Assembly (NCBI GenBank): GCA_951812955.1
Contig: OX638340.1
Coordinates: 3,584,001-3,648,000, forward strand
DNA: 64,000 nt
Source: an uncultured Gemmatimonadota bacterium
GTDB lineage: Bacteria; JAAXHH01
Reading direction: 5' to 3'
Shown here: positions 34,769 through 64,000 of the stretch, one piece after another
How the letters are laid out: the number at the start of each line of letters is the position of its first letter
Numbering within the stretch: the first letter of the stretch is position 1
Notes under the pieces: model-generated
Databases searched by the model: none
What the model saw: only the letters and a program-made list of their open reading frames with translations
Told to the model about the DNA's origin: nothing
Position numbers and translations under genes: made by a program

Positions 34769-34773
34769 CAGCC

Positions 34774-35950: not shown

Positions 35951-35979
35951 TTGACAATCGACGTCCCGACGTCTAATAT
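35951..35979 (+). promoter_or_regulatory. Near-consensus sigma70-type promoter (TTGACA-N17-TAATAT) with tandem GACGTC palindromes in the spacer; predicted leaderless start for the MTase gene
   Basis: TTGACA 35951-35956, spacer atcGACGTCccGACGTC, TAATAT 35974-35979, ATG 35986. No RBS. Confidence 0.4.
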
Positions 35980-35985
35980 TAAAAT

Positions 35986-37122: not shown

Positions 37123-37141
37123 GGACTGAAGGAATCCTCAA

Positions 37142-37672
37142 TTACCTGTCTAGGTAAATCCAGTTCTCGCGAAGTTTACTCACGCCAAAGCGGTCAAGTG
37201 TGGCAGTTCGTGTGCCGAGTTCCCCTCTCGGATTGCGTCTAAAGTCTTCGATGGTTACCCTAGATAGGTAGACTTCCCTAAACGTCATTGGAAGTCTTGA
37301 TGAAGAGGGTTCGGTTTTGTTATCGACCTCGTATACAAATACACACATCCACTGGTCGCGCGCGCCATGTGTATCGACCGCACCGCCTTTTTTCTTCGTG
37401 GTTTTGATTTCAAGACCCTGATCTCCCGACTTAACGGAGTTTTCTGCGTAAACTCCCTGAACGAGAAGGTCAGGATGGCCATTGAAGTAGTTGTTTTCAG
37501 TAAGCACCCTTGAATGTTTAGCCAGACTGGCCGTCAGCATGTCCGATAGCACACCAGACATGATAGCGGGTCTCAACATATCGTCAAGCCGTTCCAGTCC
37601 GCGGTCTACCAGATGAGAATTGACATCGTGGAAGAAATCATAAACGTCCTGCATTGCCGACTCGAAATCCAT
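37142..37672 (-). CDS. Putative type II restriction endonuclease (PD-(D/E)xK)
   Basis: Convergent with the MTase, 19 bp tail-to-tail. GHPDLLVQGVYAENSVKSGDQGLEIKT gives PD...EIK spacing. Low GC with a very AT-rich upstream region. Confidence 0.45.
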   Translation of the reverse strand: MDFESAMQDVYDFFHDVNSHLVDRGLERLDDMLRPAIMSGVLSDMLTASLAKHSRVLTENNYFNGHPDLLVQGVYAENSVKSGDQGLEIKTTKKKGGAVDTHGARDQWMCVFVYEVDNKTEPSSSRLPMTFREVYLSRVTIEDFRRNPRGELGTRTATLDRFGVSKLRENWIYLDR

Positions 37673-37864
37673 AATGCGGAGCTGATATGGTAAAGTCGAG
37701 TCAGGATTGAATGATTCTCTTACTACGACATTTCTGGATTGTTTGATCCGTTCGTCTCCTTCATGTTATCTGAATGCATGTTTCAACAAAATGTGATTTA
37801 CTGTGAATTTGTAAACCACTACCTACAATATCATGACCTAGAATCTCATGAAAGTAAAATCAAT

Positions 37865-39286: not shown

Positions 39287-40468
39287 ATGGCCGGAAAAAC
39301 CAACCTGTCCCGCAGAGACTTGCTGATCAAGGGAGGGCTCGCGACGGCCGGCATGGCGCTGCTGCCATCCCACGTACTGGCCCAGTTGGCCCAACTGGCG
39401 CGGGACGAGACGCCCGTGGACTGGATCGATGAATTCGGGCCGCCGCAAAGCCCCGATTTCGTCCTGCTGGACTGGAACGGACTCGAATCTTGGATTACGC
39501 CCGTAGACCAGTTCTTCTCGGCGAGCCACTATCCCGAGCCCACCGTGGCCGGAGAGGGCTACAGCCTGGAGGTTTCCGGCGCGGTAAGACAGAAGCTCAA
39601 TCTGAGCCTCGACGAAATCAAGTCCATGCCGAGCAAAGACGTTATCTTCACCCTCGAGTGCTCGGGTAACCGGGGCGTCCCCGTTTTCAGGGGCGGCGTG
39701 TACAACGCCCGGTGGACCGGCACGCCGCTGGCGCCGATCCTGGAACGGGCAGGGATGTGGGGGAACGGTATCGAGGTGGTTTTCTTCGGACACGATGAAG
39801 GGGTCGAGAACATCACGCCAATTCGAAGCGAACCGCTGGCGATGAAACAGAATTTCGCCCGGTCGCTGACCACGAAACAGGCGATGGATCCGGACATCCT
39901 GCTGGCCTATGAGGTTAACGGACAGACGCTGCCGCCGAAGCACGGATATCCCCTGCGGCTCATCGTACCCGGCTGGTACGGCATCACCCAGGTGAAGTGG
40001 CTGAAACGCATCGAGGTGCGCACTACCCGGTACATGGGCAGGTTCATTTCGCGGGATTACGTCACGGTCCGCGAGGAGACCCACAACGGGGAGACCGTAT
40101 GGCGCCAGGAATCTGTTGGAAAAGGCAGGATCAATTCCGTCACGGCACGGGTCACGCGGGTCGGTCCCCTGCACCGGATCTACGGCGCGGTATGGGGCGA
40201 ACCGCTCAGGGAGGTCCAGGTGCGCATCGATGACGGAGCATGGCAGACGGCCGAAATCATCGAGGGGCTGGACGCCGAACACGCCTGGAAGTTCTGGCGG
40301 TTGGACTGGGACAGGCCTTCAGCGGGCGAGCATACGATCACTTCACGGGGCGTAACGACGGGCGGCACGATACAGCCCGCGCCGGACGATCCCTACCTGG
40401 CCGGCAAGAAGACTTACTGGGAAAGTAACGGCCAGGTGACCCGGACTATTCAGATCTTCGAAAGCTAG
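39287..40468 (+). CDS. Sulfite-oxidase-family molybdopterin oxidoreductase with Tat signal
   Basis: SRRDLLIKGGLATAGMA twin-Arg signal. Mo-co binding core (ECSGNRG..., GYPLRLIVPGWYG) plus a C-terminal dimerisation-like domain. Confidence 0.75.
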   Translation: MAGKTNLSRRDLLIKGGLATAGMALLPSHVLAQLAQLARDETPVDWIDEFGPPQSPDFVLLDWNGLESWITPVDQFFSASHYPEPTVAGEGYSLEVSGAVRQKLNLSLDEIKSMPSKDVIFTLECSGNRGVPVFRGGVYNARWTGTPLAPILERAGMWGNGIEVVFFGHDEGVENITPIRSEPLAMKQNFARSLTTKQAMDPDILLAYEVNGQTLPPKHGYPLRLIVPGWYGITQVKWLKRIEVRTTRYMGRFISRDYVTVREETHNGETVWRQESVGKGRINSVTARVTRVGPLHRIYGAVWGEPLREVQVRIDDGAWQTAEIIEGLDAEHAWKFWRLDWDRPSAGEHTITSRGVTTGGTIQPAPDDPYLAGKKTYWESNGQVTRTIQIFES

Positions 40469-44866: not shown

Positions 44867-45670
44867 ATGACTGTGATCTCAAAACGCATACTGCCCGGCG
44901 AGCGTCTCGACGACGCCTGGATGGAAGAAATACTCACGGACTTTTACAGGGACGGTTTCGCCCTTATACCGGGTGTGTTGACCCGGGATGAAATCGATGC
45001 CCTCCGCGAGGTGACGGACCGCTGCTTCAACGATCCCGTGCTGGCCGGCACTGATTACCTGAGCGGGCAGGGGGACGGATTCGTGCTCCGCAATACATTG
45101 GAACTGGACGCCGTATTCGTGGACATGCTGATTCGGGAGCCGATCCTGAGTCTGGCTGAAGCCGTCGTGGGAGAGGACTGTAAGTTCTGCGGGCAGAACG
45201 TGATCCGGAACGCGCCGGGCCAGGCCATTTCGCTGTGGCACGTGGACGACCGGGTGGAGTTCCCGTTGCCGGAAGACGTGCACCGCCACGACCCCCGCAT
45301 CCGCATGCCGGTGCAGTGGTTCACCATCCAGATGGCCCTGACAGATATCGATTCGGTGGAGGATGGTCCTACGCAGTTCGTGCCGGGCAGCCAGTATTCC
45401 GGCAGAGATCCCAACAGCCAGGAAAATCCGGAGTTCGAAGGCAGAGGACCGGTCTCTGCGTTATGCAAGGCGGGCGACGTCTACCTGCAGAACAACCAGT
45501 GCTGGCACCGGGGAGCGCCCGTCACATCGGATCAGATGCGCTATGTCTTCCAGTCCCAGTACGCCGCCCGTTGGGCCCACAGGCGGTTCAACGAGTATAA
45601 CCACGTACCTGTGCCGCCCACGGTTCTAAGCCGGGCCTCGGACAGGCTGCGTGGGGTGCTGGGTGCGTGA
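44867..45670 (+). CDS. PhyH-family Fe(II)/2OG oxygenase
   Basis: WHVDD HxD motif, distal WHRG. 267 aa. Confidence 0.7.
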   Translation: MTVISKRILPGERLDDAWMEEILTDFYRDGFALIPGVLTRDEIDALREVTDRCFNDPVLAGTDYLSGQGDGFVLRNTLELDAVFVDMLIREPILSLAEAVVGEDCKFCGQNVIRNAPGQAISLWHVDDRVEFPLPEDVHRHDPRIRMPVQWFTIQMALTDIDSVEDGPTQFVPGSQYSGRDPNSQENPEFEGRGPVSALCKAGDVYLQNNQCWHRGAPVTSDQMRYVFQSQYAARWAHRRFNEYNHVPVPPTVLSRASDRLRGVLGA

Positions 45671-48215: not shown

Positions 48216-49019
48216 TCAGTCCCGTCGCAGGTTGCTGAACTCCGGTTTCGGACCGCCCTCTTCACGGTCCCACTGCCACAGTTCCGTGTAGGGCGACTGG
48301 GCGTGGAAACCGAAGATGACCGGTCCGTCTTCGCCCGCCCGTTCGAGCACGTCCGGATTGACCACGCGGGGCATCTCGTACTCGCAACGGGTCCAACGCC
48401 TCCGCCAGGGGCTCAACACCGCATAGCGCGGCTGGTCGGTCTGGTTCTTCGTCGTACCATGCCAGGTATTCACGTCGAAGAGCACGAGCGATCCTTCCGG
48501 GGCGACGGCAGTCCGGGCGTTGCCATAGGCCGAATCGGGCACGTCGAGGTACTCGTACCGGTGGCTGCCCGGGACGAACTCCGTCGCGCCGTTGGTCTCG
48601 GTAAAGGGGCTCAGGCAGAAGATCGTGTTCAAGGCGATCGAGTGGCTCGTGATCCGCCGGCCCTCGTCGGCATCGGGCATGGATGCGTCCCGGTTGTGAC
48701 CGGTGATACCGCTGTCGGAATGCAGCCCGTGTCCGCCTTCACCGGGCATCACCACCGATCCGTACACGGCGCTCAAAAGCGCGTCGGGGCCCAGGAAGTG
48801 TCTCGTCAGCCTCAGATGGTCGGGAAGCTGGTAGAACCGTTCGAACACCCGCGCCTTGTTGAAGAGCCATTCGAAACTGCCCCGCTCGCGGTTGGGGTAA
48901 CGTGTTTCGAGTTCCCTTCGCGCTTCCGCGCATTCCTCTGCCGTCAACTGGTCCGTCAGGATGGTGTATCCCTCAACCTTCAGGTCCAGCACGTGGGCTT
49001 GAAAGGATTCGTCTGTCAT
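48216..49019 (-). CDS. PhyH-family oxygenase
   Basis: HSDSG HxD motif. Start at internal Met (MTDESFQAHVLDL). Confidence 0.6.
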   Translation of the reverse strand: MTDESFQAHVLDLKVEGYTILTDQLTAEECAEARRELETRYPNRERGSFEWLFNKARVFERFYQLPDHLRLTRHFLGPDALLSAVYGSVVMPGEGGHGLHSDSGITGHNRDASMPDADEGRRITSHSIALNTIFCLSPFTETNGATEFVPGSHRYEYLDVPDSAYGNARTAVAPEGSLVLFDVNTWHGTTKNQTDQPRYAVLSPWRRRWTRCEYEMPRVVNPDVLERAGEDGPVIFGFHAQSPYTELWQWDREEGGPKPEFSNLRRD

Positions 49020-49120
49020 AGGTTGATTCCGGCTCTCATGTGATGCTTGTTCGACCAGCGCAGGGTTTGGCGGATCAACGGCCGGTATGGCCATCGCCCG
49101 GTCCGCGGCGTCCGCTCGAA

Positions 49121-49993: not shown

Positions 49994-50794
49994 CTAAAGG
50001 GCGACTTCCTCGACAGGCTGCGTGCCGGTCTCGTAGGCGGGCCGCCACCGGTCGTGGGCCATGGACTCCTCCTCGCTGAGCCCGCACAGCCAGTTCCAGG
50101 TGTGGATGCGGCGTCTCAGGTCCCGGTAGGATTCCACTCCACTCGTGTATGGCGCGGCCGGCCGGTCGCGGTACACGGGGATTTCTTCCGAATCGATGAG
50201 CCAGTCGCGCTGCGGCGGTGCATTGCGGAAGTAGGAGAATTTGATCATGCTGCGGGGCTTGTGATTGAGCTTCGGGCCCGCCCGGTGCCAGATGCCGTAC
50301 CGGGTGATGGCCACGGTGCCGGCCTTCACTACGAGCGAAAGCTGGCCCGTGAGATCGCCGTAGTGGGCGAGGGCGTCGCGGTTGACCGCCCGGCAGTGGG
50401 AACCGGGCAGGATCATGGTCGGCCCGTCTTCGATCCCCACGTCCTGCGGATAATAGTAGCACTGGAGTTCGTTGATCTCGTAACCCTGGCCGGAAATGCC
50501 GTCCGAATGCCAGTCCTGACCCGCGACGGGCTCGTTTATGAGGTGGTGATGGCCGCCCGTCGGCATCAGGAAGTTGGCACCGAGCAGCGAACGTATCACG
50601 CCTGCCAGCCGCGGATGGAGCAGGACTTCGCGGACGAAATCCGGTGAACCGACCAGTTCCTTCGCGCGGCCGACCTTGACGTTGCGGCACTGCGCGTTGA
50701 AACCGGGATCCACCATTTCTTCAAGCACCGCGTAACCCTTCGCCACGAAATCCATCACGTCGTCGTCGGTCATTGTCGGTCTGATCTCCGCCAT
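49994..50794 (-). CDS. PhyH-family oxygenase
   Basis: WHSDG HxD motif, distal WHRAG. Confidence 0.7.
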   Translation of the reverse strand: MAEIRPTMTDDDVMDFVAKGYAVLEEMVDPGFNAQCRNVKVGRAKELVGSPDFVREVLLHPRLAGVIRSLLGANFLMPTGGHHHLINEPVAGQDWHSDGISGQGYEINELQCYYYPQDVGIEDGPTMILPGSHCRAVNRDALAHYGDLTGQLSLVVKAGTVAITRYGIWHRAGPKLNHKPRSMIKFSYFRNAPPQRDWLIDSEEIPVYRDRPAAPYTSGVESYRDLRRRIHTWNWLCGLSEEESMAHDRWRPAYETGTQPVEEVAL

Positions 50795-51169: not shown

Positions 51170-51533
51170 TTCGTGATGTCCCTTTGCCGAGTCTGACGTC
51201 GCGGACAATACAGATGCTAAAGGTGTAATGTACAAGGCGTTCTGATTATCGATGTCAGGAGTACGAATGCTCCTGCAATGGTACAGAGGCTACCGGTACC
51301 GTGTCAAGCAGGAATGAACCGTCTTTTTTGAAGGTGGTTTCGGCATGGAAGCCGCTGGTCTTGACAGCGTCCGGCACGCCGCTTAAGTTGCCTTCTGACG
51401 GTCATCGAAATGCGATCATCCAGGTCATTCAGTTCATTCCGACCAGCTGAACAGCGTGCGCAATTCGGGCAGAAACTTCCGGTCCGTCGATTTCCCGTTA
51501 CCAATTTCGATTCTCAGTTTAAAGGTATTCTAT

Positions 51534-52283
51534 ATGTCCCACGCGCAACCCCTGAATGCCCAGCAGATCGCCTACTTCAAGCTAAACGGCTACCTGGTCC
51601 TGAAGAACGTTTTCGACGAGGGAACCCTGGAGGCATGGCGGCGGCAGATCTGGCGGGCGCTCGATGGCTGCCTCGAAGATCCCGCGACCTGGCCCAGGGA
51701 AACGAGCGGTCTAGACGGGTACGATTACGATCCGCCCGAATCGGCCCTTGTGCACCATCCACAGATGATGGCGATCATCGACCAGCTCAGCGGGGGAACT
51801 TTCGTCGCTGGCGACGGCATTCCGATCATTCGGTGGCCCGATCCAGGAAAGTCCTGGGAAATGCCCCAAACGGGACATATCGATGCCTACGGGGGACGCT
51901 GGCTGCCCTTCATGATCGGCGCGACGACCTACCTGTACGACGTGGAACCCGGCGGCGGAGCCTTGATCTACTGGCCGGGAAGCCACCACGCCGCTCACCG
52001 GTACTTTCTCGAGCATCCCTCGCATGTCGACGGCAGCTTCCTGGAGATCGAGGGGTTTTCGTGGGACGTGTTCTGCGACAACCCGGCCACCGGCGGCCAG
52101 GAGTTTACCGCGAAGGCCGGCGACGTGGTGCTCTGGCATGCCTACCTGACCCACAACGGATCGGAAAATACCAGTCATTCGCCGCGCTTCGCCCTCTTCG
52201 CACGCTGGAACCATGAGAAACACCTGGAGCAGTCCTTCAGATACGAGATCCCCGAGGATCTGTGGAAGTATTGGGCGGTGTGA
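51534..52283 (+). CDS. PhyH-family oxygenase
   Basis: Start MSHAQPLNAQQIAYFKLNGYLVL. HIDAYG HxD motif, distal WHAYLTHNGS. Confidence 0.7.
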   Translation: MSHAQPLNAQQIAYFKLNGYLVLKNVFDEGTLEAWRRQIWRALDGCLEDPATWPRETSGLDGYDYDPPESALVHHPQMMAIIDQLSGGTFVAGDGIPIIRWPDPGKSWEMPQTGHIDAYGGRWLPFMIGATTYLYDVEPGGGALIYWPGSHHAAHRYFLEHPSHVDGSFLEIEGFSWDVFCDNPATGGQEFTAKAGDVVLWHAYLTHNGSENTSHSPRFALFARWNHEKHLEQSFRYEIPEDLWKYWAV

Positions 52284-52452: not shown

Positions 52453-52863
52453 ATGAGCTCAGTACCGGAACCGGATCAAGAGGAAGATCTTATGGGGAAA
52501 ATCATGAATGATTCCGCGAGCGTATCCGTTTTCGAGGTCGTTGGCAACGCTCTTTGCGTTGCTTCCGACGACGGCCAGAGAGTACACGACCGACTTTCGA
52601 CTGCATTGAAGGATAGCCGCCATGTGAATCTTTCTTTTCGCAACGTGACATCGCTTACTTCGGCTTTTCTGAACACCGCGGTCGGCCAATTGTATGGAAC
52701 CTTCAGCGAAGATCATATACGTACGCAGTTGAACATCGAAGAAATGTCCCTGGATGATCTGGTGTTACTCGAGCGTGTGGTCGACACAGCGAAGCAATAC
52801 TTCAAAGACCCTCAAAGATTCGAACAAGCGCTTCGTGAGGAAATGGATGACTATGACGACTGA
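52453..52863 (+). CDS. STAS-like (DUF4325-like) small protein
   Basis: VNLSFRNVTSLTSAFLNTAVGQLYG resembles the STAS-like DUF4325 core. Low-GC islet. Its 3' end overlaps the next gene by 17 nt. Confidence 0.45.
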   Translation: MSSVPEPDQEEDLMGKIMNDSASVSVFEVVGNALCVASDDGQRVHDRLSTALKDSRHVNLSFRNVTSLTSAFLNTAVGQLYGTFSEDHIRTQLNIEEMSLDDLVLLERVVDTAKQYFKDPQRFEQALREEMDDYDD

Positions 52864-53395
52864 TTCCAAGGCGCTCGCGGTGAATGAACACGAATTCAGT
52901 CGTAGAGATAGGTTGTTTCTTGATACTAATATCTGGTTGTATCTATTCGGTCCGCATAAACCCAAGGCAAGAGCGATCGACACGTATTCAAGTGTGCTTA
53001 AGCGGATTCTGGATGCGGGTAGCAGAATCTATATCGACGTTCTGATCGTTTCAGAGTTCATCAACGCATGCGCCAGGTTGAATTGGCATCTTGCAACAAA
53101 CAGGAAAATTGGTTTCAAAGCATTTCGAAATTCGTCATCTTTCAAATCAGTCGCCAGGTCGGTGTCAAGCGACGCCGCGCGGGTTATGTCCCACTGCTTG
53201 CGTGTGGAAAGTGGATTCTCGGACATGGCCGCGACCGAATTGCTCAATGAATTTGTCACCGGAAAATGCGACTTCAACGATCAAGTTATCATAAGACTCT
53301 GTAAAAAAGAAGAACTAACCCTGATTACACACGACGCCGATTTCAAAGGCGCGGGGATTCCGATTTTGACAGCGAACCATCGTCTTCTGAACTAA
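52847..53395 (+). CDS. PIN-domain nuclease
   Basis: LFLDTNIWLY...SEF...FNDQ...ITHDADF gives the four PIN acidic positions. Intact, 182 aa. Confidence 0.6.
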   Translation: MTMTTDSKALAVNEHEFSRRDRLFLDTNIWLYLFGPHKPKARAIDTYSSVLKRILDAGSRIYIDVLIVSEFINACARLNWHLATNRKIGFKAFRNSSSFKSVARSVSSDAARVMSHCLRVESGFSDMAATELLNEFVTGKCDFNDQVIIRLCKKEELTLITHDADFKGAGIPILTANHRLLN

Positions 53396-53399
53396 TCCC

Positions 53400-54227
53400 A
53401 TGCCCGCCTACCCCCGCTACCTCACCAAAGCTCAATTGGAGCAGTTCTGGTCCGACGGCTACCTGGTTTTGAAAGGCACGCTGGATCAAGAAGTGGTAGA
53501 AAAAGCCCGCGAATTCCTGCTGGACCTGATCCCGCGGGACCTGGTCATCCCGGACCACTACCACGCGAACCACGGCCGGTTCAAGCCCCACCACCCCGAC
53601 GGGAATGGCAGCTTTTTTGAACCTGCGATGCTGCCCCTGATGCAGAACGAAGCACTTTACGGCGCTGCCGTGGATATACTGGAGACAGAATACATCCGGG
53701 TGTGGGACGGTTCGGCGGGGATAACGCTAAGAAACCGCGCCATGGAAGGACGGCTCCAGAACCTCCACCTCGACGCTGTACCGGGAGGGCCCGAAGACCT
53801 GAATGAGGGGTTCCTTCGCACGGGAATAGGTATCGGCGGATGTTATTACCTGAACAAGGTTGAAGGTGAGGGCGGCGGCATCCACGTGGTTCCCGGCGGG
53901 CCGAACCGGGTGAGGGATATCATGCTTAACGAACCGGACGGTCTGACGCGCAACAACGGCTGGGGTCATATCACCGATTTTTCGTCGTCCATGGAGGTAA
54001 CCGGTGATGCCGGCGATTTCGTGCTGATGCATCACCTGATGCCCCACTCGGCCAGCGCCAATCACAACGCCGCGCCACGGATCGCCCAGTTCACCCGTCT
54101 GCAGGCCCTGACGGACGATGACGCCCGCCTCGCTCCGGGTCCCGACCGACCCCTGGACCCCGCAGCGCTTGGCGCCCTGACACCCCTGGGACGCAAACTG
54201 TTCCGCCTGGCCCCGTGGATCGGGTAA
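53400..54227 (+). CDS. PhyH-family oxygenase
   Basis: N-terminal LTKAQLEQFWSDGYLVLKG motif, HLD HxD. Confidence 0.6.
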   Translation: MPAYPRYLTKAQLEQFWSDGYLVLKGTLDQEVVEKAREFLLDLIPRDLVIPDHYHANHGRFKPHHPDGNGSFFEPAMLPLMQNEALYGAAVDILETEYIRVWDGSAGITLRNRAMEGRLQNLHLDAVPGGPEDLNEGFLRTGIGIGGCYYLNKVEGEGGGIHVVPGGPNRVRDIMLNEPDGLTRNNGWGHITDFSSSMEVTGDAGDFVLMHHLMPHSASANHNAAPRIAQFTRLQALTDDDARLAPGPDRPLDPAALGALTPLGRKLFRLAPWIG

Positions 54228-54242: not shown

Positions 54243-56216
54243 TTGGAACGGACGTACTCCATGTCCTCTGAACCTCCCCGGTCCCGTGGCCCTTCGGCCA
54301 TATCCCTGCGGGCCGGGATCATCGGGCTCGCGCTCTCCGCCGTGGTGGCTTTCTGGGGCCAGTTCGCCGCCGATCACGCCGGTTACAACTATACCACCTA
54401 CGCCCATATCCCCTCGGCGCTGCTGATCCCCTTCCTGATCCTGATCCTGGGTCCCCACGTCCTGCTCAAGAGGCTGGCGCCCGGGTACGCCCTGACGACT
54501 TCCGAGCTGATCGTGATTTTCGTCATGGGCCTGATCGGTTCGATGGTGCCCGACTGGGGCATGACGAGATACCTGGTCTCCCTCATCACGGGGCCCTTCT
54601 ACCATGCGAGTCCCGAGAACCGCTGGGCGGAGACTTTTTTCGAGACCTTGCCCGGGTGGCTCGTGATCAGCGGCAAGACGGACGCGGTACGGGTTTTCTA
54701 CGAAGGCGCCGCGCCGGGTTACCGGATCCCGTGGATGGCCTGGATCTCGCCCCTGCTGTGGTGGATGTCGTGTTTCGCCGCCCTGATGTGGACGGGCGCA
54801 TGCATCGTGGTCATCCTGCGAAAGCAATGGGTCAGCCACGAAAGGCTGCGCTTTCCCCTGGGGGAGGTATCGCTCAACCTGATGGGCGTGGCGAAGGACC
54901 CGAACGAGCCGCCCATGGTCCGCACGACTGCCTTTCGTATCGGCGCCGGCCTGTCGCTGGCCGTCGTGTGCTGGAACATCGCCTCCTACTGGGACATCGT
55001 TACCCCTATCCCCATCATGGGGCCGGACCTGCTGTATCTGAAGGTCCATCCGTCGATACCGGATCTTCCCATCCGGCTGAATGTCTTCGTACTGTGTTTC
55101 GCTTTCTTCATAAACGCCGAGATCCTGTTCAGCCTGTGTTTCTTCCTGCTCTTCACCACGCTGCAGCGGGGGCTGATGAACATGCTCGGGATCACGGCGG
55201 CCACGACCATGTCTCCTACCGGGCTCGTGGGCACCCAGTCCATCGGTGCCCTGATCGCCCTGGTGGTGTGGGGATTGTGGATGGCCCGTCGTCACCTGGC
55301 CGGTGTGGCCCGGCGGGCGTTTCGAAAGGATCCGTCGATCGATGACAGCAGTGAGTTCTTCTCGTACCGGGTGGCGGTTTTCGGATTGATCTTCGGCATG
55401 CTCTACCTGCTGGCATGGCTTTACAGCATCGGCATGTCGCTGCCCGTCAGCCTTGTCCTCCTGGCCGTACTCTTCATCGTCTACATCGGAATGGCCCGGA
55501 TCGTTGCGGAGGCGGGTCTGGTCGCCATGGACCTGCCGGTAACAGCCAACAACTTCACCGGGGGCATTATCGGCGCCGACAACCTGGACCCGTCCTCGAT
55601 CACCGCTATGGGCATGACGAACGCCTTCGCCCGGAACTGGCGGACCTTTACGATGATCGGGCTGTCTCACGCCGCCTACCTGCAGCGCTGGATGGGGCCG
55701 TCCACCCGGCACCTCTTCCTCTGGATCTGCCTGGCCTTCGCCGTCAGTGTCGTAACTTCCCTCTACTACTACATCAGCGCGGGTTATGCAGTCGGCGCCG
55801 ATAATCTGCTGTCCAAGCCCGGCGACCTCGTACCCTTCTTCTACAACACGATCATGACGTGGAACAGCAGCGCAAGCAGTGTCTCGGAACTGGAACTGAT
55901 CTTCTTCGGGAACGGTATCGTCCTGTACATGCTGATGATCCTCGGACGCTTCATGTTTCTCTGGTGGCCGCTGCATCCCATCGGCCTGGTCGCCGTGGCC
56001 GCGGACACCGTGCGGTTCATGTTCCTACCCTTCCTGCTGGCCTGGCTCGTCCAGGTAATCCTGCTGCGCCTGGGTGGAGGAGCCCTTTACCGCAGAGCGC
56101 AGCCCCTGTTTCTCGGCATCCTGGTTGGATATGTCCTTGGGATGGCCCTCTCATTCCTGGTGGACAGCCTGTGGTTTCCGGCCGCACCGCACCAGTTCGA
56201 ATCCTTTATCAACTGA
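54243..56216 (+). CDS. Large polytopic membrane protein of unknown family (paralog of the 60259 gene)
   Basis: ~14 TM segments. Conserved blocks shared with the paralog (RKQWVSHERLRFPLGE, EFFSYRVAVFG...MARIVAEAGLV, LHPIGLV). Confidence 0.6.
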   Translation: MERTYSMSSEPPRSRGPSAISLRAGIIGLALSAVVAFWGQFAADHAGYNYTTYAHIPSALLIPFLILILGPHVLLKRLAPGYALTTSELIVIFVMGLIGSMVPDWGMTRYLVSLITGPFYHASPENRWAETFFETLPGWLVISGKTDAVRVFYEGAAPGYRIPWMAWISPLLWWMSCFAALMWTGACIVVILRKQWVSHERLRFPLGEVSLNLMGVAKDPNEPPMVRTTAFRIGAGLSLAVVCWNIASYWDIVTPIPIMGPDLLYLKVHPSIPDLPIRLNVFVLCFAFFINAEILFSLCFFLLFTTLQRGLMNMLGITAATTMSPTGLVGTQSIGALIALVVWGLWMARRHLAGVARRAFRKDPSIDDSSEFFSYRVAVFGLIFGMLYLLAWLYSIGMSLPVSLVLLAVLFIVYIGMARIVAEAGLVAMDLPVTANNFTGGIIGADNLDPSSITAMGMTNAFARNWRTFTMIGLSHAAYLQRWMGPSTRHLFLWICLAFAVSVVTSLYYYISAGYAVGADNLLSKPGDLVPFFYNTIMTWNSSASSVSELELIFFGNGIVLYMLMILGRFMFLWWPLHPIGLVAVAADTVRFMFLPFLLAWLVQVILLRLGGGALYRRAQPLFLGILVGYVLGMALSFLVDSLWFPAAPHQFESFIN

Positions 56217-56310
56217 GTACTACCCTCATAAACTCACCAGAACACAGGATCGCGGAACCGTAAATGAAGCCCTGATATCGAAACCGTAAAAGAACGTCTG
56301 ACGAAAGTTC

Positions 56311-56362
56311 GCAATCATCCGAAACGGAAGCGAGACGCAATCATCCGAAACGGAAGCGAGAC
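56311..56362 (+). repeat. Perfect 26-bp tandem duplication (gcaatcatccgaaacggaagcgagac x2) spanning the sulfatase RBS region
   Basis: Copies at 56311-56336 and 56337-56362, 6 nt before ATG 56369. Confidence 0.8.
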
Positions 56363-56368
56363 GCAACC

Positions 56369-57733
56369 ATGGCCACGAAATCCGGACGCCCCAATCTCCT
56401 GTTTATCATGGACGACCAGCACCGGCACGACTACCTGTCCGCGGCGGGAGCGACCTTCGTGCGCACGCCGAACCTGGACTGTTTGGCGGAACGCGGGGTC
56501 CGATTCAGCCAGTGCATAACCAACGCCCCGGTCTGCGCGCCCGCGCGCATCGGCCTGGCCAGCGGCTACCAGCCCGCGCGGCTGGGGTGCCTGGACAACA
56601 ACTGCTACCTGCCCCGCCATATCACGCCCTATTACGTCCGGCTTCGGGACGCGGGATACCGGGTCGGGTGCGTGGGGAAACTCGACCTGGCCAAGCCGGA
56701 TCCCTACAACGGCCGCCACGGCGACCGAGCCCGGGTGTTCGGTTGGGGTTTCACCCATCCCGTGGAATGCGAAGGCAAGATGCACGCGGGCATGGCGGAC
56801 CAGCCGCGGGGACCTTATGGATTCTGGCTTCAGGAGCAGGGACTCTTCGAACGCTTCCGGACGGATTACGCGGCCCGGGGAGCGCGGGGCTGGATCGAGG
56901 GTGCTTCCCATGATTCTATATTGCCTGAGGACGCTTTCGAGGATGCCTACATTGGCCGCCGCGCCGTGGAATGGATGGACACCGTCCCCGACGATTACCC
57001 GTGGCATCTCTTCGTCAGCTTCGTGGGGCCGCACGATCCCTTCGATCCGCCTACGTCATACGCGGAACGATACCGGGGCGCTGCCGTGCCGCCGGCAATA
57101 CGAAGCAACGAAGAGGGGAAGCCGTCCTGGGTCAACGCCCGTCGGCGCGACCTGTCCGAAGATGAAGTGGCAGTTACGCGCCGGCAGTATTGCGCGGTCA
57201 TCGAACTGATCGACGACCAGGTAGGCCGGATCATCGAAGCCGTAGAACGGCGGGGCATGGCGGAGGATACCATCGTCGTGTTCGCCAGCGACCACGGCGA
57301 AATGCTGGGCGACCATGGCCTGTACACCAAATCCGTTCCCTACGAGGTGGCCCTGCGCGTGCCGCTCATTGCCGCTGGACCAGGCATAGCGGGAGGGCGT
57401 ACTTCCGACGCCCTCGTGGAACTGATCGACGTCAATCCGACCCTGTGCGGTCTGGCGGGTCTGCCCGCCCAGGAAGGGCTCGACGCCAGCGACTTCAGCG
57501 CCGTGCTCACCGGGGATCGTTCGACCCACCGCGAGGAAGCGGCCAGCGCGCTTCGCGAATTCCGGCTCGTACGCACGGCGGATCACAAGCTTGTGGTGCA
57601 CCACACGGGTGAAACGGAGCTATACGACCTGAAAAACGATCCTGAAGAGCTTGAAAACGTGGCGGCCGATCGGCCCGATGCGGTCAACGCGCTGCGAAGG
57701 CGTCTGCAGCGGCGATTTCACTTCCCGCCCTAA
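56369..57733 (+). CDS. Cys-type sulfatase (formylglycine-dependent)
   Basis: LLFIMDDQHRHD plus CAPAR (CxPxR) active-site motif. 454 aa. Confidence 0.85.
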   Translation: MATKSGRPNLLFIMDDQHRHDYLSAAGATFVRTPNLDCLAERGVRFSQCITNAPVCAPARIGLASGYQPARLGCLDNNCYLPRHITPYYVRLRDAGYRVGCVGKLDLAKPDPYNGRHGDRARVFGWGFTHPVECEGKMHAGMADQPRGPYGFWLQEQGLFERFRTDYAARGARGWIEGASHDSILPEDAFEDAYIGRRAVEWMDTVPDDYPWHLFVSFVGPHDPFDPPTSYAERYRGAAVPPAIRSNEEGKPSWVNARRRDLSEDEVAVTRRQYCAVIELIDDQVGRIIEAVERRGMAEDTIVVFASDHGEMLGDHGLYTKSVPYEVALRVPLIAAGPGIAGGRTSDALVELIDVNPTLCGLAGLPAQEGLDASDFSAVLTGDRSTHREEAASALREFRLVRTADHKLVVHHTGETELYDLKNDPEELENVAADRPDAVNALRRRLQRRFHFPP

Positions 57734-57787
57734 CGCCGGCGATTTCACTTCCCGCCGTGACCCTCCGTGACCATGCCGGACATGCCG

Positions 57788-58623
57788 TCAAGACCGGCCG
57801 TAAGGCGCGCCATCGGGCGAGGCATGTTGCGGTGAGACGATCTGGCGTCGTTCGGGCGTAAGACGGTCCAGCAGTTCGGGCGAGGGCTGGTACCCGTGGC
57901 GGAAATTGCCCCAGGAAGGTCCGTACCGGTAGACCACGATACGGCGCGTTCCCGCGTTTCGCCGGGTGGCCGAACCGTGGGAGATGCCATCCACGAACAA
58001 CAGGGCGTCGCCGGCCTCCATAAACAGTTCCGCGGAACCGGTAATGCCCTCCACGGAAGCGCCCTTGGGCTTCATGGCGTGCCGGGCGAATTCTGGGTGG
58101 ATGAAGTTGGATTTGTGACTGCCCGGGATGACCATGGTGGCGCCGTCCCCGGGACCGATGTCGGTCAGGGCCATGAGCACATTGACCTGCCCGCACATGA
58201 ACCGGCCGCCGTGGTAGCGGAAGCCGTTGCGCATGATGGGCGGGTATCCCCCGGAATGCAGCCCGATCGCCTCTCCCGGCTCCCGGAAATTTGCGAAGTT
58301 CTCGTCGATGAACAGCGGGCCGTGTGCGTAGTCGAAGGTACCCTCCCCGCCCACGAAATGCTTGACCCGGTCGAACCACGAAGGATGGTCGATCAGGGCT
58401 TCGAACGGGGCGCCCGCTTCGTAAATCTGCTGGAGGTTCAGGCCGTCCACGGTGCCGTAGGTATGGGCGTTGACGAATCCGTGCCATTCGCCCGGCGACA
58501 GGGCCGGGAATTCGTCCAGGGAGGCGTTCAGTTCCGCCACTTCCGCCCTCGACAGGGCCTGCTTCAGATGGAGGAATCCGTTCAGGTCGAAGAGATAGAC
58601 ATCCAGGTCGTCAAGATTGCTCA
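57788..58623 (-). CDS. PhyH-family oxygenase
   Basis: Start MSNLDDLDVYLFDLNGFLHLKQAL. HSGGYP...H motifs. Sits between the two sulfatase genes. Confidence 0.6.
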
Positions 58624-58808
58624 TGGGATTGTACCGTTTCTCCAGGGAAATCCTGTTGATTTGTCCCGCCCGATTCGTTACTCTCTTGATCGGCAATATA
58701 TCTCGCCAACCAGCGATACACAACCCAATTGCACTGGGAACCGCGCGAGACGCCGGCCGGATCCATTCCATCCCGAAATATCCGCGTAGACAGGACGAGG
58801 TAACCTGA

Positions 58809-60182
58809 ATGAAGGCCGTTTCACAGCCCAACGTGCTGATTGTGCTGAGTGATCAACTGCGGCGGCAGGCCCTGTCCACCTACGGCGATCCGAACATCGT
58901 CACGCCTCACGTCGACGACCTGGCCGGCCGGGGTGTTCGATTCGAGAACGCCAGTTCTACCTGTCCCATCTGCGTCCCTTTCCGTTTCACTTTCATGACG
59001 GGGCTGTACGCCCATGACCGGAAGGTACCTGGTATCGAGTACAGGATGTCTCCCGCGGAACGCACCCTGGCCGACGAGTTCAACGAGGCGGGGTACGAAA
59101 CGATCTATACGGGCAAATGGCATCTCGACGGAGGTCACGGCCGCATGGGGTCCGCCCGGCAGTGCGGGCGGATGCCCGTGAAGAAGGCCTACCGGGGCCG
59201 CTGGCAGAAGTGGATGGGTTTCGAACTCAGAAACGGCCCCTTCGATACCTTTTATTTCGAAGACGACGACCCGACGCCAAAACCGGTAGAAGGATACCAG
59301 ACCGACGGGCTTTTCGAGCTCGCCATGGACTACCTCGAGACCCGGGATCCGTCCCGTCCCTTCTGCATGGTGGTTTCCGTCGAGCCGCCCCACGATCCTT
59401 TCGAGGCCCCGGAGGCGATGCAGCGCACCTGGGAGGCGATGGACATCGTGCTTCCGCCCAACGTCGACGCGGCCGACGCCGAGGCCATGGAACGGATCAT
59501 GCTCAACCGGAAGCGGTATTACGCCATGGTGGAAAACCTGGACTGGAACATGGGGCGCCTCGGCGCATTTCTGCTGCGAACCGGCCTCCACGGCGAGACC
59601 GTGGTCGTGTTTCTTTCGGATCACGGAGAACTCGGCGGCGCCCATGGACTCCGGGGAAAGCAGTGGCCTTACGAGGAGTCGACGGGAATCCCCCTGATCG
59701 TGGCGGATCCACGGCACCCGGACCGGGCCGGTGCCTTGATCGAAGATCCGGTCTCCACCGAGGACCTGTTCCCCACCATACTCGGTCTGGCCGGGCTGCG
59801 ACCACGGGACGCCCTTCCCGGCGAAAACCTTGCACCGTTGATACACGGCAACACCGGACGGCTGGAGCGGGAAGGCGTGATGCTCGAGTTCGTGGCTGAA
59901 CTGCGTCAGGGCATGGCCTTCTACGACCAGGTCTGGCGTGGGTACCGATCCGCTCGGTACAAGTATACCGTGTGCGGGGACAACCTCGGCGGCGCCGGGC
60001 CGTGGCAGTTCTTCGATCTGGCGGAGGATCCCTGGGAACAGCGAAATCTCATTGACGATCCCGCTTTCCGGCCGGAGATCACGCGTCACCATGGCCTTCT
60101 CCTGGACAGGATGAAGGAGACCGACGACCACTTCGTACTCCTACCCGCCTTCGGAATGGAAGGATTGAATACCTGGGATTGA
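58809..60182 (+). CDS. Cys-type sulfatase (second, divergent subfamily)
   Basis: NVLIVLSDQLR plus CVPFR (CxPxR) motif. 457 aa. Confidence 0.85.
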   Translation: MKAVSQPNVLIVLSDQLRRQALSTYGDPNIVTPHVDDLAGRGVRFENASSTCPICVPFRFTFMTGLYAHDRKVPGIEYRMSPAERTLADEFNEAGYETIYTGKWHLDGGHGRMGSARQCGRMPVKKAYRGRWQKWMGFELRNGPFDTFYFEDDDPTPKPVEGYQTDGLFELAMDYLETRDPSRPFCMVVSVEPPHDPFEAPEAMQRTWEAMDIVLPPNVDAADAEAMERIMLNRKRYYAMVENLDWNMGRLGAFLLRTGLHGETVVVFLSDHGELGGAHGLRGKQWPYEESTGIPLIVADPRHPDRAGALIEDPVSTEDLFPTILGLAGLRPRDALPGENLAPLIHGNTGRLEREGVMLEFVAELRQGMAFYDQVWRGYRSARYKYTVCGDNLGGAGPWQFFDLAEDPWEQRNLIDDPAFRPEITRHHGLLLDRMKETDDHFVLLPAFGMEGLNTWD

Positions 60183-60258
60183 ACCCCGCGATCCTCGCTA
60201 AGCACCGCACAGGATCCGTCGGCGGCTGTGTCTGAATCCAGAGGAAATCGAAGCATAC

Positions 60259-62250
60259 ATGTCCCAAACCAGCGAGACGACGCCACAGACCGGCGAAACC
60301 GGAAGCGGTGGCGCGGCTAAAACACTGACGACCGGTCTCACCCGCAGGGCCCTGCTGATCGGCATCTTTCTGTCTGTCCTGCTGAACATCTGGACGATTC
60401 ACGCGGGCTACATCAGCCAGTCGTCGTTCATCAGCCTGACCCACCTGCCCGTTTCCGCCCTGTTCCCCTTCCTGCTGGTGCTGCTGGGGCTCAATCCGCT
60501 GTTGAAAGTCTTCTGGCCGTCCAGGGTACTGCACCGCAATGAACTGATAATCGTGTTCTTCCTGGTCTTTACCGCGTCGACCATTCCCGCGTGGCCCTTC
60601 AGTTCCTACTGGATCAGCGGTATCACGGGGCCGTACTATAACGCCACCACGGAGAACCAGTGGGCGGAGCTCTTCTTCCAGTATCTGCCCTCCTGGCTGA
60701 TCGTCCAGGACGAGCAGCGCGCCCTCTCGTGGTTTTTCGAAGGCATCCCTGACAGCCGCCCCCCGGTCTTCGGCATCATTCGCAATGCCTGGACCGTACC
60801 GATGTTCTGGTGGGTCACCTTCTTCCTCGCCATCTTCGTGGTCGGCGCGTCGGCCATGGTCATGCTTCGCAAACAGTGGGTGGAACACGAGCGGCTGTCC
60901 TTCCCGCTCGCCCAGATTCCGCTGATCCTGGTCGAAGAGGAGAAGGGCCGCGCGTTGCCCGCCGTGATGCAATCGAAGCTGTTCTGGTACGCTTTCGGCA
61001 TCACGTTGTTTATTTTCCTCTGGAACATCGTCGGTTTCTTCAACTGGGTCAGCGCCATCCCCATTGGGCCGCTGCACAACTTCCCCGTTGTGATCGCCCG
61101 GGCGTTTCCCGCTATTCCCGTCAAGTTCAATTTCCTGGTTGCGGGCGTTGGATACTTCACGAACCTGAACGTCCTTTTCAGCATATGGGTGTTCTTCGTC
61201 ATCATGACCATTCAGCAGGGCATCATGACCCGCCTCGGCGTGCCCAATGCCTTCGCGGTCGTCAAGTCGCAGCATTCCGGCGGGTTTCTCGTGTTTGCTC
61301 TGTACGCTTTGTGGGCGGCGCGGCGGCACCTGAAGGACGTCGTGATGAAAGCACTGGGCAAGGCGCCCCACGTGGATGATTCGAAGGAGTTCTTTTCCTA
61401 CCGGATGGCCGCGCTGGGCGTCCTGGGTGGCGTTACCTACATCGTGTGCTGGCTTTATGCCACGGGCATGTCCCTCGGAATCATCGCCTTCATGATGGGG
61501 TCGTTGCTGATCATGTTCGTGGGCGTGACGCGCATCGTGGCGGAAACGGGCATCGTGTTCCTTGACCTGCCCTTCGAGACCCACGACTTCACGGTGGCCG
61601 TCATCGGTTCGGGGAGTATCAGTACGCGGGATCTGACAAACCTCGCCATAGCCAATTCCTACGCCCGCAACTGGCGGACGCTCGGCATGTGTTCCATGGG
61701 GCATATCGCCAAGGTCGACGACGAGATGGGCGGTACGGGTAAAGGATCCTTCAAGACGATCACGGCCGTTCTCGCCCTGAGTATAGTCGTGTCGTTGATA
61801 TTCACGATTTACCTGGGATATAACCACGGAGGGGCTTCGCAGTTCTTCGAGCCTGCGTTCACCAACGGGACCAAGCTACCTTACGACAACCTGGTCAAAT
61901 GGATCAATAACAGGGAGGCGATCACCGGGACCGAGTTCTGGTTCATGGTCTTCGGAGGTGTGATTACCACACTGCTGATCCAGGCTCACCACCGGTTCAC
62001 CTGGTGGTCGCTGCACCCCATCGGATTCACCGTTGTGCTGACGCCGGGCATGGCCAGTTCGGCTTTCTCGCTGTTTGTGGTCTGGTGCGTGAAGGCCCTG
62101 CTCCTGAAGATCGGGGGCATCCAGCTGTACAGAAAGGCCGTACCCGCTGTCATGGGCATGCTCGTTGCGTTCGTACTTGGCGTGTTTCTTTCGTACGTGG
62201 CCGACGTCGCCTGGTTTCCCAGGGCAGGCCATCCCGTTCAGAACTGGTAA
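60259..62250 (+). CDS. Large polytopic membrane protein, paralog of the 54243 gene
   Basis: Collinear homology with the 54243 gene. 663 aa. Confidence 0.6.
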   Translation: MSQTSETTPQTGETGSGGAAKTLTTGLTRRALLIGIFLSVLLNIWTIHAGYISQSSFISLTHLPVSALFPFLLVLLGLNPLLKVFWPSRVLHRNELIIVFFLVFTASTIPAWPFSSYWISGITGPYYNATTENQWAELFFQYLPSWLIVQDEQRALSWFFEGIPDSRPPVFGIIRNAWTVPMFWWVTFFLAIFVVGASAMVMLRKQWVEHERLSFPLAQIPLILVEEEKGRALPAVMQSKLFWYAFGITLFIFLWNIVGFFNWVSAIPIGPLHNFPVVIARAFPAIPVKFNFLVAGVGYFTNLNVLFSIWVFFVIMTIQQGIMTRLGVPNAFAVVKSQHSGGFLVFALYALWAARRHLKDVVMKALGKAPHVDDSKEFFSYRMAALGVLGGVTYIVCWLYATGMSLGIIAFMMGSLLIMFVGVTRIVAETGIVFLDLPFETHDFTVAVIGSGSISTRDLTNLAIANSYARNWRTLGMCSMGHIAKVDDEMGGTGKGSFKTITAVLALSIVVSLIFTIYLGYNHGGASQFFEPAFTNGTKLPYDNLVKWINNREAITGTEFWFMVFGGVITTLLIQAHHRFTWWSLHPIGFTVVLTPGMASSAFSLFVVWCVKALLLKIGGIQLYRKAVPAVMGMLVAFVLGVFLSYVADVAWFPRAGHPVQNW

Positions 62251-62298
62251 TCTTGCTGCGTCCTGCTGATCTCCAGCAGGCGCGTGGGAGCGTTGAAA

Positions 62299-62688
62299 AT
62301 GTCGGAAGAACAGGATCCCCAGGAAATACTCGACCGCATCCTGGAAAACGACGGCCGATATCCCAGGAGGGCCTACCTCTTCGTCCTTGAGGCGGTTTCG
62401 TATACGGTGGAGAAACTGTCAGAACGCAGGCACATATCGGGGAAGGAACTTTCCATGGGCATCAGGGATCTCGCCCTCGAAAGGTTCGGCATCGCGGCGA
62501 AACTGGTGTTCGAAGAGTGGAACCTCACCAGAACCCGTCACTTCGGCGACATCGTCTTCAATCTGGTCAACGAGGGGTTACTGCGGAAAACCGAAGAGGA
62601 CGACATCGAGGATTTCGACGAGGTGTTCGACTTCACCACCGCGTTCGAAACCGAGTTCCGGATCACCGTGGAATCGAAGGACGGCTGA
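62299..62688 (+). CDS. Hypothetical acidic protein
   Basis: Start MSEEQDPQEILDRIL. No domain recognised. Confidence 0.35.
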   Translation: MSEEQDPQEILDRILENDGRYPRRAYLFVLEAVSYTVEKLSERRHISGKELSMGIRDLALERFGIAAKLVFEEWNLTRTRHFGDIVFNLVNEGLLRKTEEDDIEDFDEVFDFTTAFETEFRITVESKDG

Positions 62689-62797: not shown

Positions 62798-64000
62798 TTA
62801 TGCCCTCCGGACCGTGCGCTGCCGTCTCCCGAAAGTAGGTTTCGGCGCCTGAGTTTGCGATTCGGACCCGCTTTGGGTATTCGAACCTTCGTCCCGGGAA
62901 TCCGAGCTTGTCTCCGATTGAATGGATGGTTCGTTCACGGCTTCGGGCTTGTCTCCGGCAGCCTTCGCGGTCCTGGATCCGGGCTTGTCTCCGGCAGCCT
63001 TCCTGGTCCTGGATCCGGGCTTGTTTCCGGCAGCCTTCCTGGTCCTGGATCTGGGCTTGTTTACGGTCGCCTTCACGTCCTTGGTCTCGGGTTCATCTCC
63101 GGCAGCCTTTGCGTCCTTAGCCTCGGGCTCGTTTTCGGCAATCTTCACGGCCTTGGTCTCGGGTTCATCTCCGGCAGCCTTTGCGTCCTTGGCCTCGGGC
63201 TCATTTCCGGCAGCCTTCGCGGTCTTGGTTTCGGACTCATTTCCGGCAGTCTTAGCGGTCTTGGTTTCAGACTCATTGGCCACCGCGGTCTCACCGCCGG
63301 ATTCCTCGGCGGTTTCAGCAATGACTGGTTGCGTTTCCACAGTTTCCGGCGAATCGTCCTTTTTCGGTGCAGCATCCTTGCCTCTTCGGGTTCTGCCGGT
63401 CCTGCTCCCTTGACCGTTACCTCTGGAGGCGCGGCTTTTCTTACCGTCGCCTTTTTCCCCGGCCGCGGATGTGTCGCGGTCGCTTCCATCATCGGGCGTG
63501 AGGGCTTTCTCTTCCTGCTGTACGGTTTCATCCTGCGTGTTCGTTTCGTCGGCCGCGGAGGAAGGTGCACCGTTCGTCTGCTGTCGCGTGCCGCGCCGGC
63601 CTCCTGACTGTCGGGGCTTGCCCGATGAGCGCTTTGAACGGCTCGTGCCGGATCTCGCGGATGAACGGGAAGCGGACGGTTTCGCTTCGGCCGCCACCGT
63701 CTCGTCGCCGGTGTCTCCGTTGGCCGCGGGGGGCAGGGAACGGAAGTTGAGCCGGCCGGAAGCGGTCGGCACGGATTTAAGCTTGTTGATCAGTCGCTTC
63801 GGAAAGACCATGCGGGCCGTGATCAGCGGATTCCCCCACTGGCTGACGCGGAGTCCGCCCCCCAGGCTGACCAGGGCGTAGGCCGTATCGTAATCCAGTC
63901 CCTTGTCCTGCGAGATCCATTTCACCATCTCGGTGATCGCCAGTCTGGCAGCCTGGTCGACCGAGGACGCGGAAGTAATGGTGACCCATTCGCCCTTCGA
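62798..64000 (-). CDS. Acetamidase/formamidase-like protein (N-terminus beyond window) with ~300-aa repetitive Lys/Ala/Glu/Thr-rich C-terminal tail
   Basis: The frame is open to the window edge. ...ITEMVKWISQDKGLDYDTAYALVSLGGGLRVSQ resembles the FmdA/AmdA C-terminal block. The tail is made of 12-aa repeats (EPEAKDAKAAGD). Confidence 0.4.
   Translation of the reverse strand, partial: SKGEWVTITSASSVDQAARLAITEMVKWISQDKGLDYDTAYALVSLGGGLRVSQWGNPLITARMVFPKRLINKLKSVPTASGRLNFRSLPPAANGDTGDETVAAEAKPSASRSSARSGTSRSKRSSGKPRQSGGRRGTRQQTNGAPSSAADETNTQDETVQQEEKALTPDDGSDRDTSAAGEKGDGKKSRASRGNGQGSRTGRTRRGKDAAPKKDDSPETVETQPVIAETAEESGGETAVANESETKTAKTAGNESETKTAKAAGNEPEAKDAKAAGDEPETKAVKIAENEPEAKDAKAAGDEPETKDVKATVNKPRSRTRKAAGNKPGSRTRKAAGDKPGSRTAKAAGDKPEAVNEPSIQSETSSDSRDEGSNTQSGSESQTQAPKPTFGRRQRTVRRA
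62930..63290 (+). repeat. 36-bp tandem repeats (about 10 copies) encoding the repetitive tail of the 62798 gene
   Basis: ggcttgtctccggcagccttcgcggtcctggatccg units and variants. Confidence 0.6.

Follow-up and report, generated by a model that had tools for sequence, protein, structure and literature searches.

The 64,000-nucleotide window analysed here, from an uncultured Gemmatimonadota bacterium (contig OX638340.1, positions 3,584,001 to 3,648,000), contains a module in which two large polytopic membrane proteins, m1 and m2, each stand beside a sulfatase. Five open reading frames (ORFs) of this module had been reported in an earlier note, made from the letters of the window, and all five are found in that order and at the same coordinates in the ORF list of the window. 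Together with the gene that precedes them, the full order comprises (i) a PhyH-family Fe(II)/2-oxoglutarate (2OG) oxygenase of 275 residues (53400-54227, plus strand; PF05721, E=9e-7), displaying the canonical H-L-D; (ii) m1 (54243-56216, plus strand); (iii) the sulfatase S1, 454 residues long (56369-57733, plus strand); (iv) a second PhyH-family oxygenase of 278 residues (57788-58624, minus strand; PF05721, E=2.5e-19), convergent with S1 and divergent from S2; (v) the sulfatase S2, 457 residues long (58809-60182, plus strand); and (vi) m2 (60259-62250, plus strand). Both m1 and m2 are annotated as DUF6785+DUF6784 polytopic membrane proteins with an OPT/YSL-like fold, predicted to act as proton-coupled importers. 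According to a BLAST comparison with all window ORFs, the 64 kb hold two sulfatases and two DUF6785 genes only. Random placement would bring both sulfatases into contact with a membrane-protein gene in ~0.4% of cases, by a rough estimate, and the juxtaposition is thus unlikely to be due to chance, since no other sulfatase or membrane-protein gene of this kind is present in the window.

The gene boundaries rely largely on a 2.47 Mb ENA contig (ERZ18545484, ptg000768l; hereafter L081), which encodes an identical m2 protein and shares 95-98% DNA identity with the window. The gene calls on L081 give the first PhyH oxygenase with identical limits, place the true start of m1 probably at the ATG at 54261, giving a protein of 651 residues, and delimit the central PhyH gene to 278 residues (57788-58624), its overlap with S2 in the longest-ORF reading being an artefact. 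A conserved hypothetical ORF of 134 residues follows m2 (62284-62688, plus strand); it is also called on L081, with 129 residues, its region is kept in a sister metagenome-assembled genome (MAG; locus L001, m2 92% identical), and the Pfam scan gave it no family match. The layout points to two transcription units, PhyH(53400)-m1-S1 and S2-m2-(134-residue ORF), both on the plus strand and separated by the central PhyH gene on the minus strand. The gaps measure 15-33 nt and then 152 nt in the first unit, of which the PhyH gene at 53400 is probably the first gene, and 76 nt and then 33 nt in the second, where the 134-residue ORF is possibly co-transcribed with m2. The promoter and terminator scan returned counts no higher than the shuffle expectation and is uninformative, and the Rfam scan of 50-64 kb yielded zero matches.

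Two local irregularities are recorded in the first unit. A perfect 26-nt tandem duplication (CGCAATCATCCGAAACGGAAGCGAGA, twice) occupies 56310-56361 and stops 7 nt short of the S1 start codon, and a 25-nt near-duplicate at 57710-57761 spans the S1 stop codon; the exact sequences of both are absent from L081, and they may represent strain-level indels or regulatory repeats. In addition, the m1 ortholog in L001 is broken into two consecutive ORFs (4048-4914 and 4918-6033), reflecting either an in-frame stop and hence a pseudogene, or an assembly error.

The DUF6785/DUF6784 family and its predicted fold

The membrane proteins, which the earlier note could place in no transporter family, match over their full length the Pfam entries DUF6785 (PF20581; E ~1e-107) and DUF6784 (PF20580; E ~1e-17), with scores of 358.5 and 63.8 bits for m1 and 363.8 and 65.1 bits for m2, against gathering cut-offs of 25 and 26.4 bits, respectively. 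Since both domains are present in 52/52 aligned homologs, the two entries are best regarded as a single family split over two Pfam models. The family has many members. Searching 1.84 billion representatives of 50%-identity clusters with its profile retrieved 8,380 proteins at E<=1e-3 and 3,312 at E<=1e-30, and a scan of one genome per species located at least 587 genomic loci, nearly all belonging to Latescibacterota MAGs, to sponge-associated MAGs labelled Gemmatimonadetes or to Zixibacteria. Genomes carry the gene in several copies, at least five being found on one chromosome. Their source names are invariably 'hypothetical protein', NCBIfam holds no model for the family, and neither DUF6785 nor DUF6784 is mentioned by name in the literature searched. 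Among the weaker matches of the family profile hidden Markov model (HMM) to neighbouring ORFs, the protein at L086:8997-10952 is a divergent true member and that at L065:7592-9505 is unrelated. Some representatives are far longer than 650 residues, comprising P0201 (2,120 residues) and P0178, P0220, P0246 and P0261 (811-874 residues), each with two matched stretches; such proteins may have arisen by fusion or by partial tandem duplication of the transporter.

The proteins m1 and m2 align end to end with 35% identity (E=3e-138), in agreement with their description as paralogs, and S1 and S2 are indeed divergent from each other (28% identity, E=4e-36), their similarity being no greater than that to sulfatases from unrelated loci. 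To call the arrangement a duplicated module is nevertheless misleading. At the DNA level m1 and m2 match only in two conserved-motif stretches of ~30 nt, and each protein is closer to other orthogroups than to its neighbour: when 102 family members are clustered at 55% identity into 24 orthogroups, the nearest to m1 are OG1 (50%), OG14 (49%) and OG5 (48%), and the nearest to m2 are OG9 (53%) and OG4 (49%). No long or flanking DNA repeats were found around the two halves, and a recent duplication or a mobile-element origin is rejected on this ground. Outside the window, L001 and L081, the two closest relatives, are the only loci in which the complete arrangement of membrane protein, sulfatase, PhyH, sulfatase and membrane protein was encountered. 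Judged from these comparisons, m1 and m2 are two old paralogs and not the products of a recent duplication.

Template-free AlphaFold2 models, built from the 52-sequence alignment, reached a mean predicted local distance difference test score (pLDDT) of 91.8 and a predicted template modelling score (pTM) of 0.92 for m1, and a pLDDT of 89.2 and a pTM of 0.88 for m2. Compared with the PDB by Foldseek, the m2 model identifies the barley transporter Yellow Stripe 1 (HvYS1; 7wst/7wsr) as the best match (E=5e-10, probability 1.0, TM-score 0.61-0.67), the runner-up standing at E>0.09; this one solved protein is the sole representative of the OPT/YSL fold in the PDB copy searched. The models display the core and scaffold domains of the YS1-type fold. 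The 2022 structure of HvYS1 postdates the AlphaFold2 training data, and the match is therefore unlikely to reflect memorisation. HvYS1 is a homodimer of the OPT superfamily, a proton-coupled symporter for which an elevator-like mechanism is described, and its core and scaffold domains were without structural homologs when solved in 2022 (PMC9691689).

The earlier note had allowed that the proteins might instead match a family unrelated to transport, such as a glycosyltransferase or polymerase; the structure search returned the OPT/YSL fold, with no glycosyltransferase, polymerase or flippase fold above noise, so that the glycosyltransferase, polymerase and anchor readings are rejected on fold evidence. 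That m1 and m2 should be membrane enzymes (GT-C glycosyltransferases or polymerases) or anchors is thus hardly credible: it draws only on the general experience that some large polytopic DUFs turn out to be enzymes, and the models show no soluble catalytic domain. Very probably, to judge from the models, m1 and m2 are transporters with an OPT-like fold. On the same modelling grounds, DUF6785/DUF6784 is taken to be a deeply divergent branch, or a structural analogue, of the OPT/YSL superfamily, and the two proteins are filed under an OPT/YSL-like fold and not as demonstrated members of the OPT family.

The sulfatases and their association with the family

S1 and S2 both match PF00884 (E=5.8e-39 and 1.6e-47, respectively) and SGSH_C in Pfam, and both are formylglycine (Cys-type), type I sulfatases, with the maturation motif CAPAR in S1 and CVPFR in S2, and, further downstream, the metal/active-site motif SDHGE in each. 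The catalytic domain of S1 begins at residue 8, with no signal peptide, and the stop-to-stop ORF of S2 opens at the start codon, leaving no room for one. The two enzymes are accordingly predicted from their sequences to be cytoplasmic and, since they lack signal peptides, their substrates must be imported. The nearest solved structures are the choline sulfatase 6fny for S1 (1.3e-47) and YidJ, 2qzu, for S2 (1.6e-41), which makes S2 YidJ/arylsulfatase-like. Both fall well below the NCBIfam equivalog cut-offs for choline sulfatase (TIGR03417; 230.5 bits for S1 and 181.7 for S2, against 433) and arylsulfatase (PRK13759; 262 and 207 bits, against 481). The radical-SAM gene at 14780-16768 was considered as a possible anaerobic sulfatase-maturating enzyme (anSME); it carries Radical_SAM_N2 (PF19864) and is read as not belonging to that group.

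The neighbourhood survey covered 80 loci, extended by up to 10 kb on each side, in which sulfatases, PhyH proteins and family members were marked by phmmer, and which together contain 102 family genes. Of these genes, 34 have a sulfatase at a distance of 6 kb or less, and a same-strand sulfatase within 2 kb occurs in OG1, OG6, OG13 and OG23, a set that includes the orthogroups of m1 and m2. The co-occurrence that the earlier note had proposed as a check is therefore partly borne out: the 6 kb around a family gene contain 0.31 sulfatases per 10 kb, versus 0.12 per 10 kb at a distance of 6-10 kb, a ~2.6-fold enrichment, but the association is limited to ~6-8 of the 24 orthogroups. None of the neighbouring sulfatases exceeds 32% identity to S1 or S2, which indicates that different sulfatase subfamilies were recruited. 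Every sulfatase within ~6 kb of a homolog starts straight at the catalytic domain, and in OG6 the stop-to-stop ORF excludes a signal peptide. Two contexts illustrate the arrangement. In sponge-derived MAGs, an operon-like series comprises a sulfatase, a xylose-isomerase-like TIM barrel, a short-chain dehydrogenase/reductase (SDR) and DUF6785, with a second DUF6785 gene convergent to it (Pfam assignments); in OG4, one strand carries DUF6785, a luciferase-like monooxygenase, PhyH, DMFA2_C and a sulfatase, in this order.

A functional link of m1 and m2 to the adjacent sulfatases is plausible. This much of the earlier proposal holds, being consistent with the common strand, the short gaps, the signal-less sulfatases and the recurrent pairing among non-orthologous loci; the roles of anchor and exporter, also proposed there, find no support. 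The more general suggestion that the family is dedicated to sulfated compounds fails, since most paralogs stand in other catabolic contexts.

Catabolic surroundings of the family and of the module

The strongest single association of a family gene is with another member of the family: 42 of the 102 genes are accompanied by a paralog no more than 6 kb away, in many cases directly adjacent. The paralog pairs are tandem or convergent, with one triple (e.g. L045 8026-12007, L082 8001-11964, L086 7001-10952, L077 5898-11962), and by analogy with the HvYS1 homodimer it is conceivable that such pairs form heterodimers. Further neighbours include GFO/IDH/MocA, enolase-superfamily, SDR and PhyH genes. 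Individual family members are accompanied by (i) a heparinase II/III-like lyase and Amidohydro_2 ahead of two tandem family members; (ii) an alginate-lyase/heparinase protein upstream, with a sulfatase at 4.6 kb; (iii) a Na+/H+ antiporter and a TIM barrel; or (iv) ferritin, ferric reductase and TldD/PmbA. Because the paralogs sit in such varied catabolic contexts and beside each other, the family looks like a general, substrate-diversified uptake system, not one specific for sulfated compounds, and substrate specificity appears to differ between paralogs, each placed in a different cytoplasmic catabolic cluster. From genome context, oligosaccharide uptake has been suggested by Saier for one bacterial OPT subcluster (PMC3061005).

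Some of these contexts bear on the reading of m1 and m2 as ordinary OPT-like importers of peptides or glutathione, with the sulfatases coincidental in a sulfatase-rich genome. The fold itself is compatible with it, and among the OPT substrates characterised or predicted, peptides, glutathione and metal chelates predominate (PMC3061005). In addition, an M32 carboxypeptidase gene overlaps the start codon of one homolog, the tandem pairs of OG0 adjoin gamma-glutamyltranspeptidase (GGT), and L081 carries a GGT gene 3.6 kb beyond m2, on its downstream side. Nevertheless, the sole two sulfatases of the window adjoin its sole two membrane-protein genes of the family on the same strand, unrelated signal-less sulfatases are paired repeatedly in several orthogroups, and the module itself is without a peptidase, so that a peptide or glutathione importer is rather unlikely here.

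The region upstream of the module comprises six PhyH genes, two cupins, an enolase-superfamily (MR_MLE) enzyme, a UxuA-like TIM barrel, an amidohydrolase and a sulfite-oxidase-type molybdoenzyme, and is read as a cytoplasmic catabolic island of sugar-acid flavour. Seven PhyH (PF05721) paralogs are found in the window (3067-3954, 44867-45670, 48216-49094, 49994-50794, 51456-52283, 53400-54227 and 57788-58624), six of them within 14 kb and interleaved with the two cupins and the enolase-superfamily gene. Such surroundings, together with the commonest neighbours of the family (GFO/IDH/MocA, SDR, xylose-isomerase-like TIM barrels, enolase-superfamily, PhyH and heparinase II/III-like lyases), would also suit permeases for non-sulfated sugar or sugar-acid derivatives, the sulfatases acting on another pool or on a minor sulfated fraction. 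This possibility largely overlaps with the import of a sulfated substrate, differing in the sulfation of the cargo only. It leaves unexplained why the adjacent same-strand genes encode sulfatases, cytoplasmic enzymes that depend on the import of a sulfated substrate; it is considered unlikely.

The central PhyH protein, a member of an atypical and unusually conserved subfamily, has more than 3,200 homologs, and its orthologs are 68-87% identical across Latescibacterota, Zixibacteria, Handelsmanbacteria and Anaerolineae. H123-S124-G125 takes the place of the iron-binding HxD/E of the facial triad (HxD/E...H) and is invariant in 20/20 of the orthologs compared; the paralog at 48216 displays GLHSD at the position homologous to H-S-G. 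The HxG/A pattern is typical of Fe/2OG halogenases. On the other hand, AspH, a two-His hydroxylase, shows the same pattern and provides a counter-example to a halogenase reading (PMC10947486). One ortholog (P0322) is surrounded by RraA-like, GFO/IDH/MocA, heparinase II/III-like and sulfatase genes, a context that suggests a catabolic role of the central PhyH on a sugar-derived substrate. The molybdopterin oxidoreductase of sulfite-oxidase type (39287-40468, plus strand; PF00174, E=1e-45), ~14 kb upstream of the module, could be relevant if any of the oxygenases frees sulfite instead of sulfate.

Several other features were observed in the window. Two low-GC islands interrupt the ~62% GC genome: the first (52453-53395, plus strand; GC 0.53) carries a DUF4325 (STAS-like) and PIN-domain pair, inserted among the PhyH genes immediately ahead of the module, and the second (34000-38000; GC 0.50) an N6/N4 DNA methylase (35986-37122); both are probably mobile toxin-antitoxin or restriction-modification inserts. 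At the right-hand end, an ORF on the minus strand (62798-64000) runs past the limit of the window; its counterpart on L081 is a 651-residue FmdA_AmdA (formamidase/acetamidase) protein, the ORF having a long low-complexity C-terminal repeat tail rich in Lys, Ala, Glu and Thr. Beyond this gene, L081 carries PALP, GGT, an aminotransferase and an amino-acid permease. Finally, an unusual ORF of 1,531 residues (28474-33069, plus strand) fuses Peptidase_M28 with a MacB-like periplasmic core and an FtsX permease.

Proposed import of sulfated substrates and comparison with known systems

Most likely, m1 and m2 are proton-coupled, elevator-type secondary importers of the inner membrane. Each permease would carry into the cytoplasm a small sulfated organic molecule, for which sulfated mono- and oligosaccharides and choline-sulfate-like esters are candidates; the adjoining Cys-type sulfatase would then strip the sulfate, and the desulfated product would be processed by the nearby PhyH, cupin, enolase-superfamily and UxuA-like enzymes. 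We infer the direction of transport, the coupling to protons and the sulfated nature of the cargo, and assign to the import by m1 and m2 of a sulfated substrate for the adjacent sulfatase a probability of about one in two.

The reverse direction would make m1 and m2 exporters of sulfate, of desulfated products or of a sulfated metabolite. The sulfate freed by cytoplasmic desulfation would need handling, and elevator transporters could in principle work both ways. However, HvYS1, the one structural relative that has been solved, performs proton-coupled uptake (PMC9691689), uptake is also the function described for OPT members, both characterised and predicted (PMC3061005), and most family members stand without a nearby sulfatase, in contexts that are all catabolic clusters; export is thus very unlikely.

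Several observations weigh against the import of a sulfated substrate by OPT-like permeases. With respect to the fold, a link to OPT at the sequence level is lacking: in Pfam, PF03169 matches 1/52 members, at E=0.68, the NCBIfam scan gave no OPT match at E up to 5, and a profile search of PDB sequences returned nothing at E up to 10. With respect to the sulfatases, neither a formylglycine-generating enzyme (FGE) nor an anSME maturase is present among the window ORFs scanned. The 80 surveyed loci are those most similar to m2, the nominal Poisson P of ~1e-5 for the enrichment counts orthologous, non-independent loci, and most of the 24 orthogroups have no sulfatase nearby. No residue signature separates the sulfatase-linked from the unlinked paralogs; the differing positions, W45 and R470/W472, follow phylogeny, and the sulfatase-linked paralogs have no added basic residues. 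Finally, no glycoside hydrolase or lyase adjoins the module, and a carbohydrate substrate is for that reason a guess.

The family had been catalogued as DUFs and the fold itself was known; what is new is the fold assignment, not found in the literature searched, together with evidence for a paralog-rich uptake system in Latescibacterota-type bacteria and a partial link to cytoplasmic sulfatases. A large orphan family (~8,400 50%-identity clusters) thereby gains a probable fold and a testable substrate hypothesis, based on structure prediction and gene neighbourhood, the sulfatase association being partial. We know of no account of how sulfatase-rich phyla use their many sulfatases devoid of export signals. 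If the proposal is true, a dedicated inner-membrane importer of sulfated molecules would explain these enzymes, and the known range of the OPT/YSL fold would reach far into the uncultured bacteria and take in the metabolism of carbohydrates and sulfate esters. A bolder and tentative extension, which we regard as possible but doubtful, is that DUF6785/DUF6784 constitutes an unrecognised bacterial arm of OPT/YSL, diverted from the uptake of peptides and metal chelates to that of carbohydrate-derived and sulfated substrates, with adjacent paralogs operating as heterodimeric elevators; it would be the missing inner-membrane importer for cytoplasmic desulfation in Latescibacterota and sponge-associated lineages, as opposed to the periplasmic paradigm of Bacteroidota.

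Compared to the OPT/YSL transporters (TC 2.A.67; PF03169), m1 and m2 are of similar size (650-660 residues versus chains of ~600 residues) and equally polytopic, with many helices and with hairpin and discontinuous helices in both, and a common proton-coupled elevator mechanism may be supposed (PMC9691689). On the other hand, the structure-based sequence identity is 9-15%, and the OPT HMMs miss DUF6785/DUF6784. OPT proteins are reported with 2-4-8-16 transmembrane segment repeats (PMC3061005), whereas none is detectable in the sequences of the family: hhalign of N- versus C-terminal segments, as halves and quarters, gave probabilities of at most 1.1%, a weak test given that such repeats are often undetectable in sequence. 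The genomic contexts also differ, comprising sulfatases and carbohydrate catabolism here as against peptide and iron-chelate uptake.

The sulfatases in turn resemble the cytoplasmic BetC/YidJ type, S1 being nearest to choline sulfatases and S2 to YidJ. In E. coli, yidJ-yidK presumably forms a pair of sulfatase and Na+/solute symporter, and the module would share with it a signal-less sulfatase encoded beside the secondary transporter that delivers the sulfate ester. The difference resides in the partner, which for S1 and S2 is a transporter of OPT fold, not of the SSS, BCCT or ABC type. In the polysaccharide-utilisation loci of Bacteroidota, the sulfatases carry signal peptides and are periplasmic, so that desulfation precedes inner-membrane import. 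Both systems cluster sulfatases with transport and downstream sugar-catabolic genes, but with S1 and S2 in the cytoplasm, as predicted, it is the still sulfated molecule that has to pass through the inner membrane.

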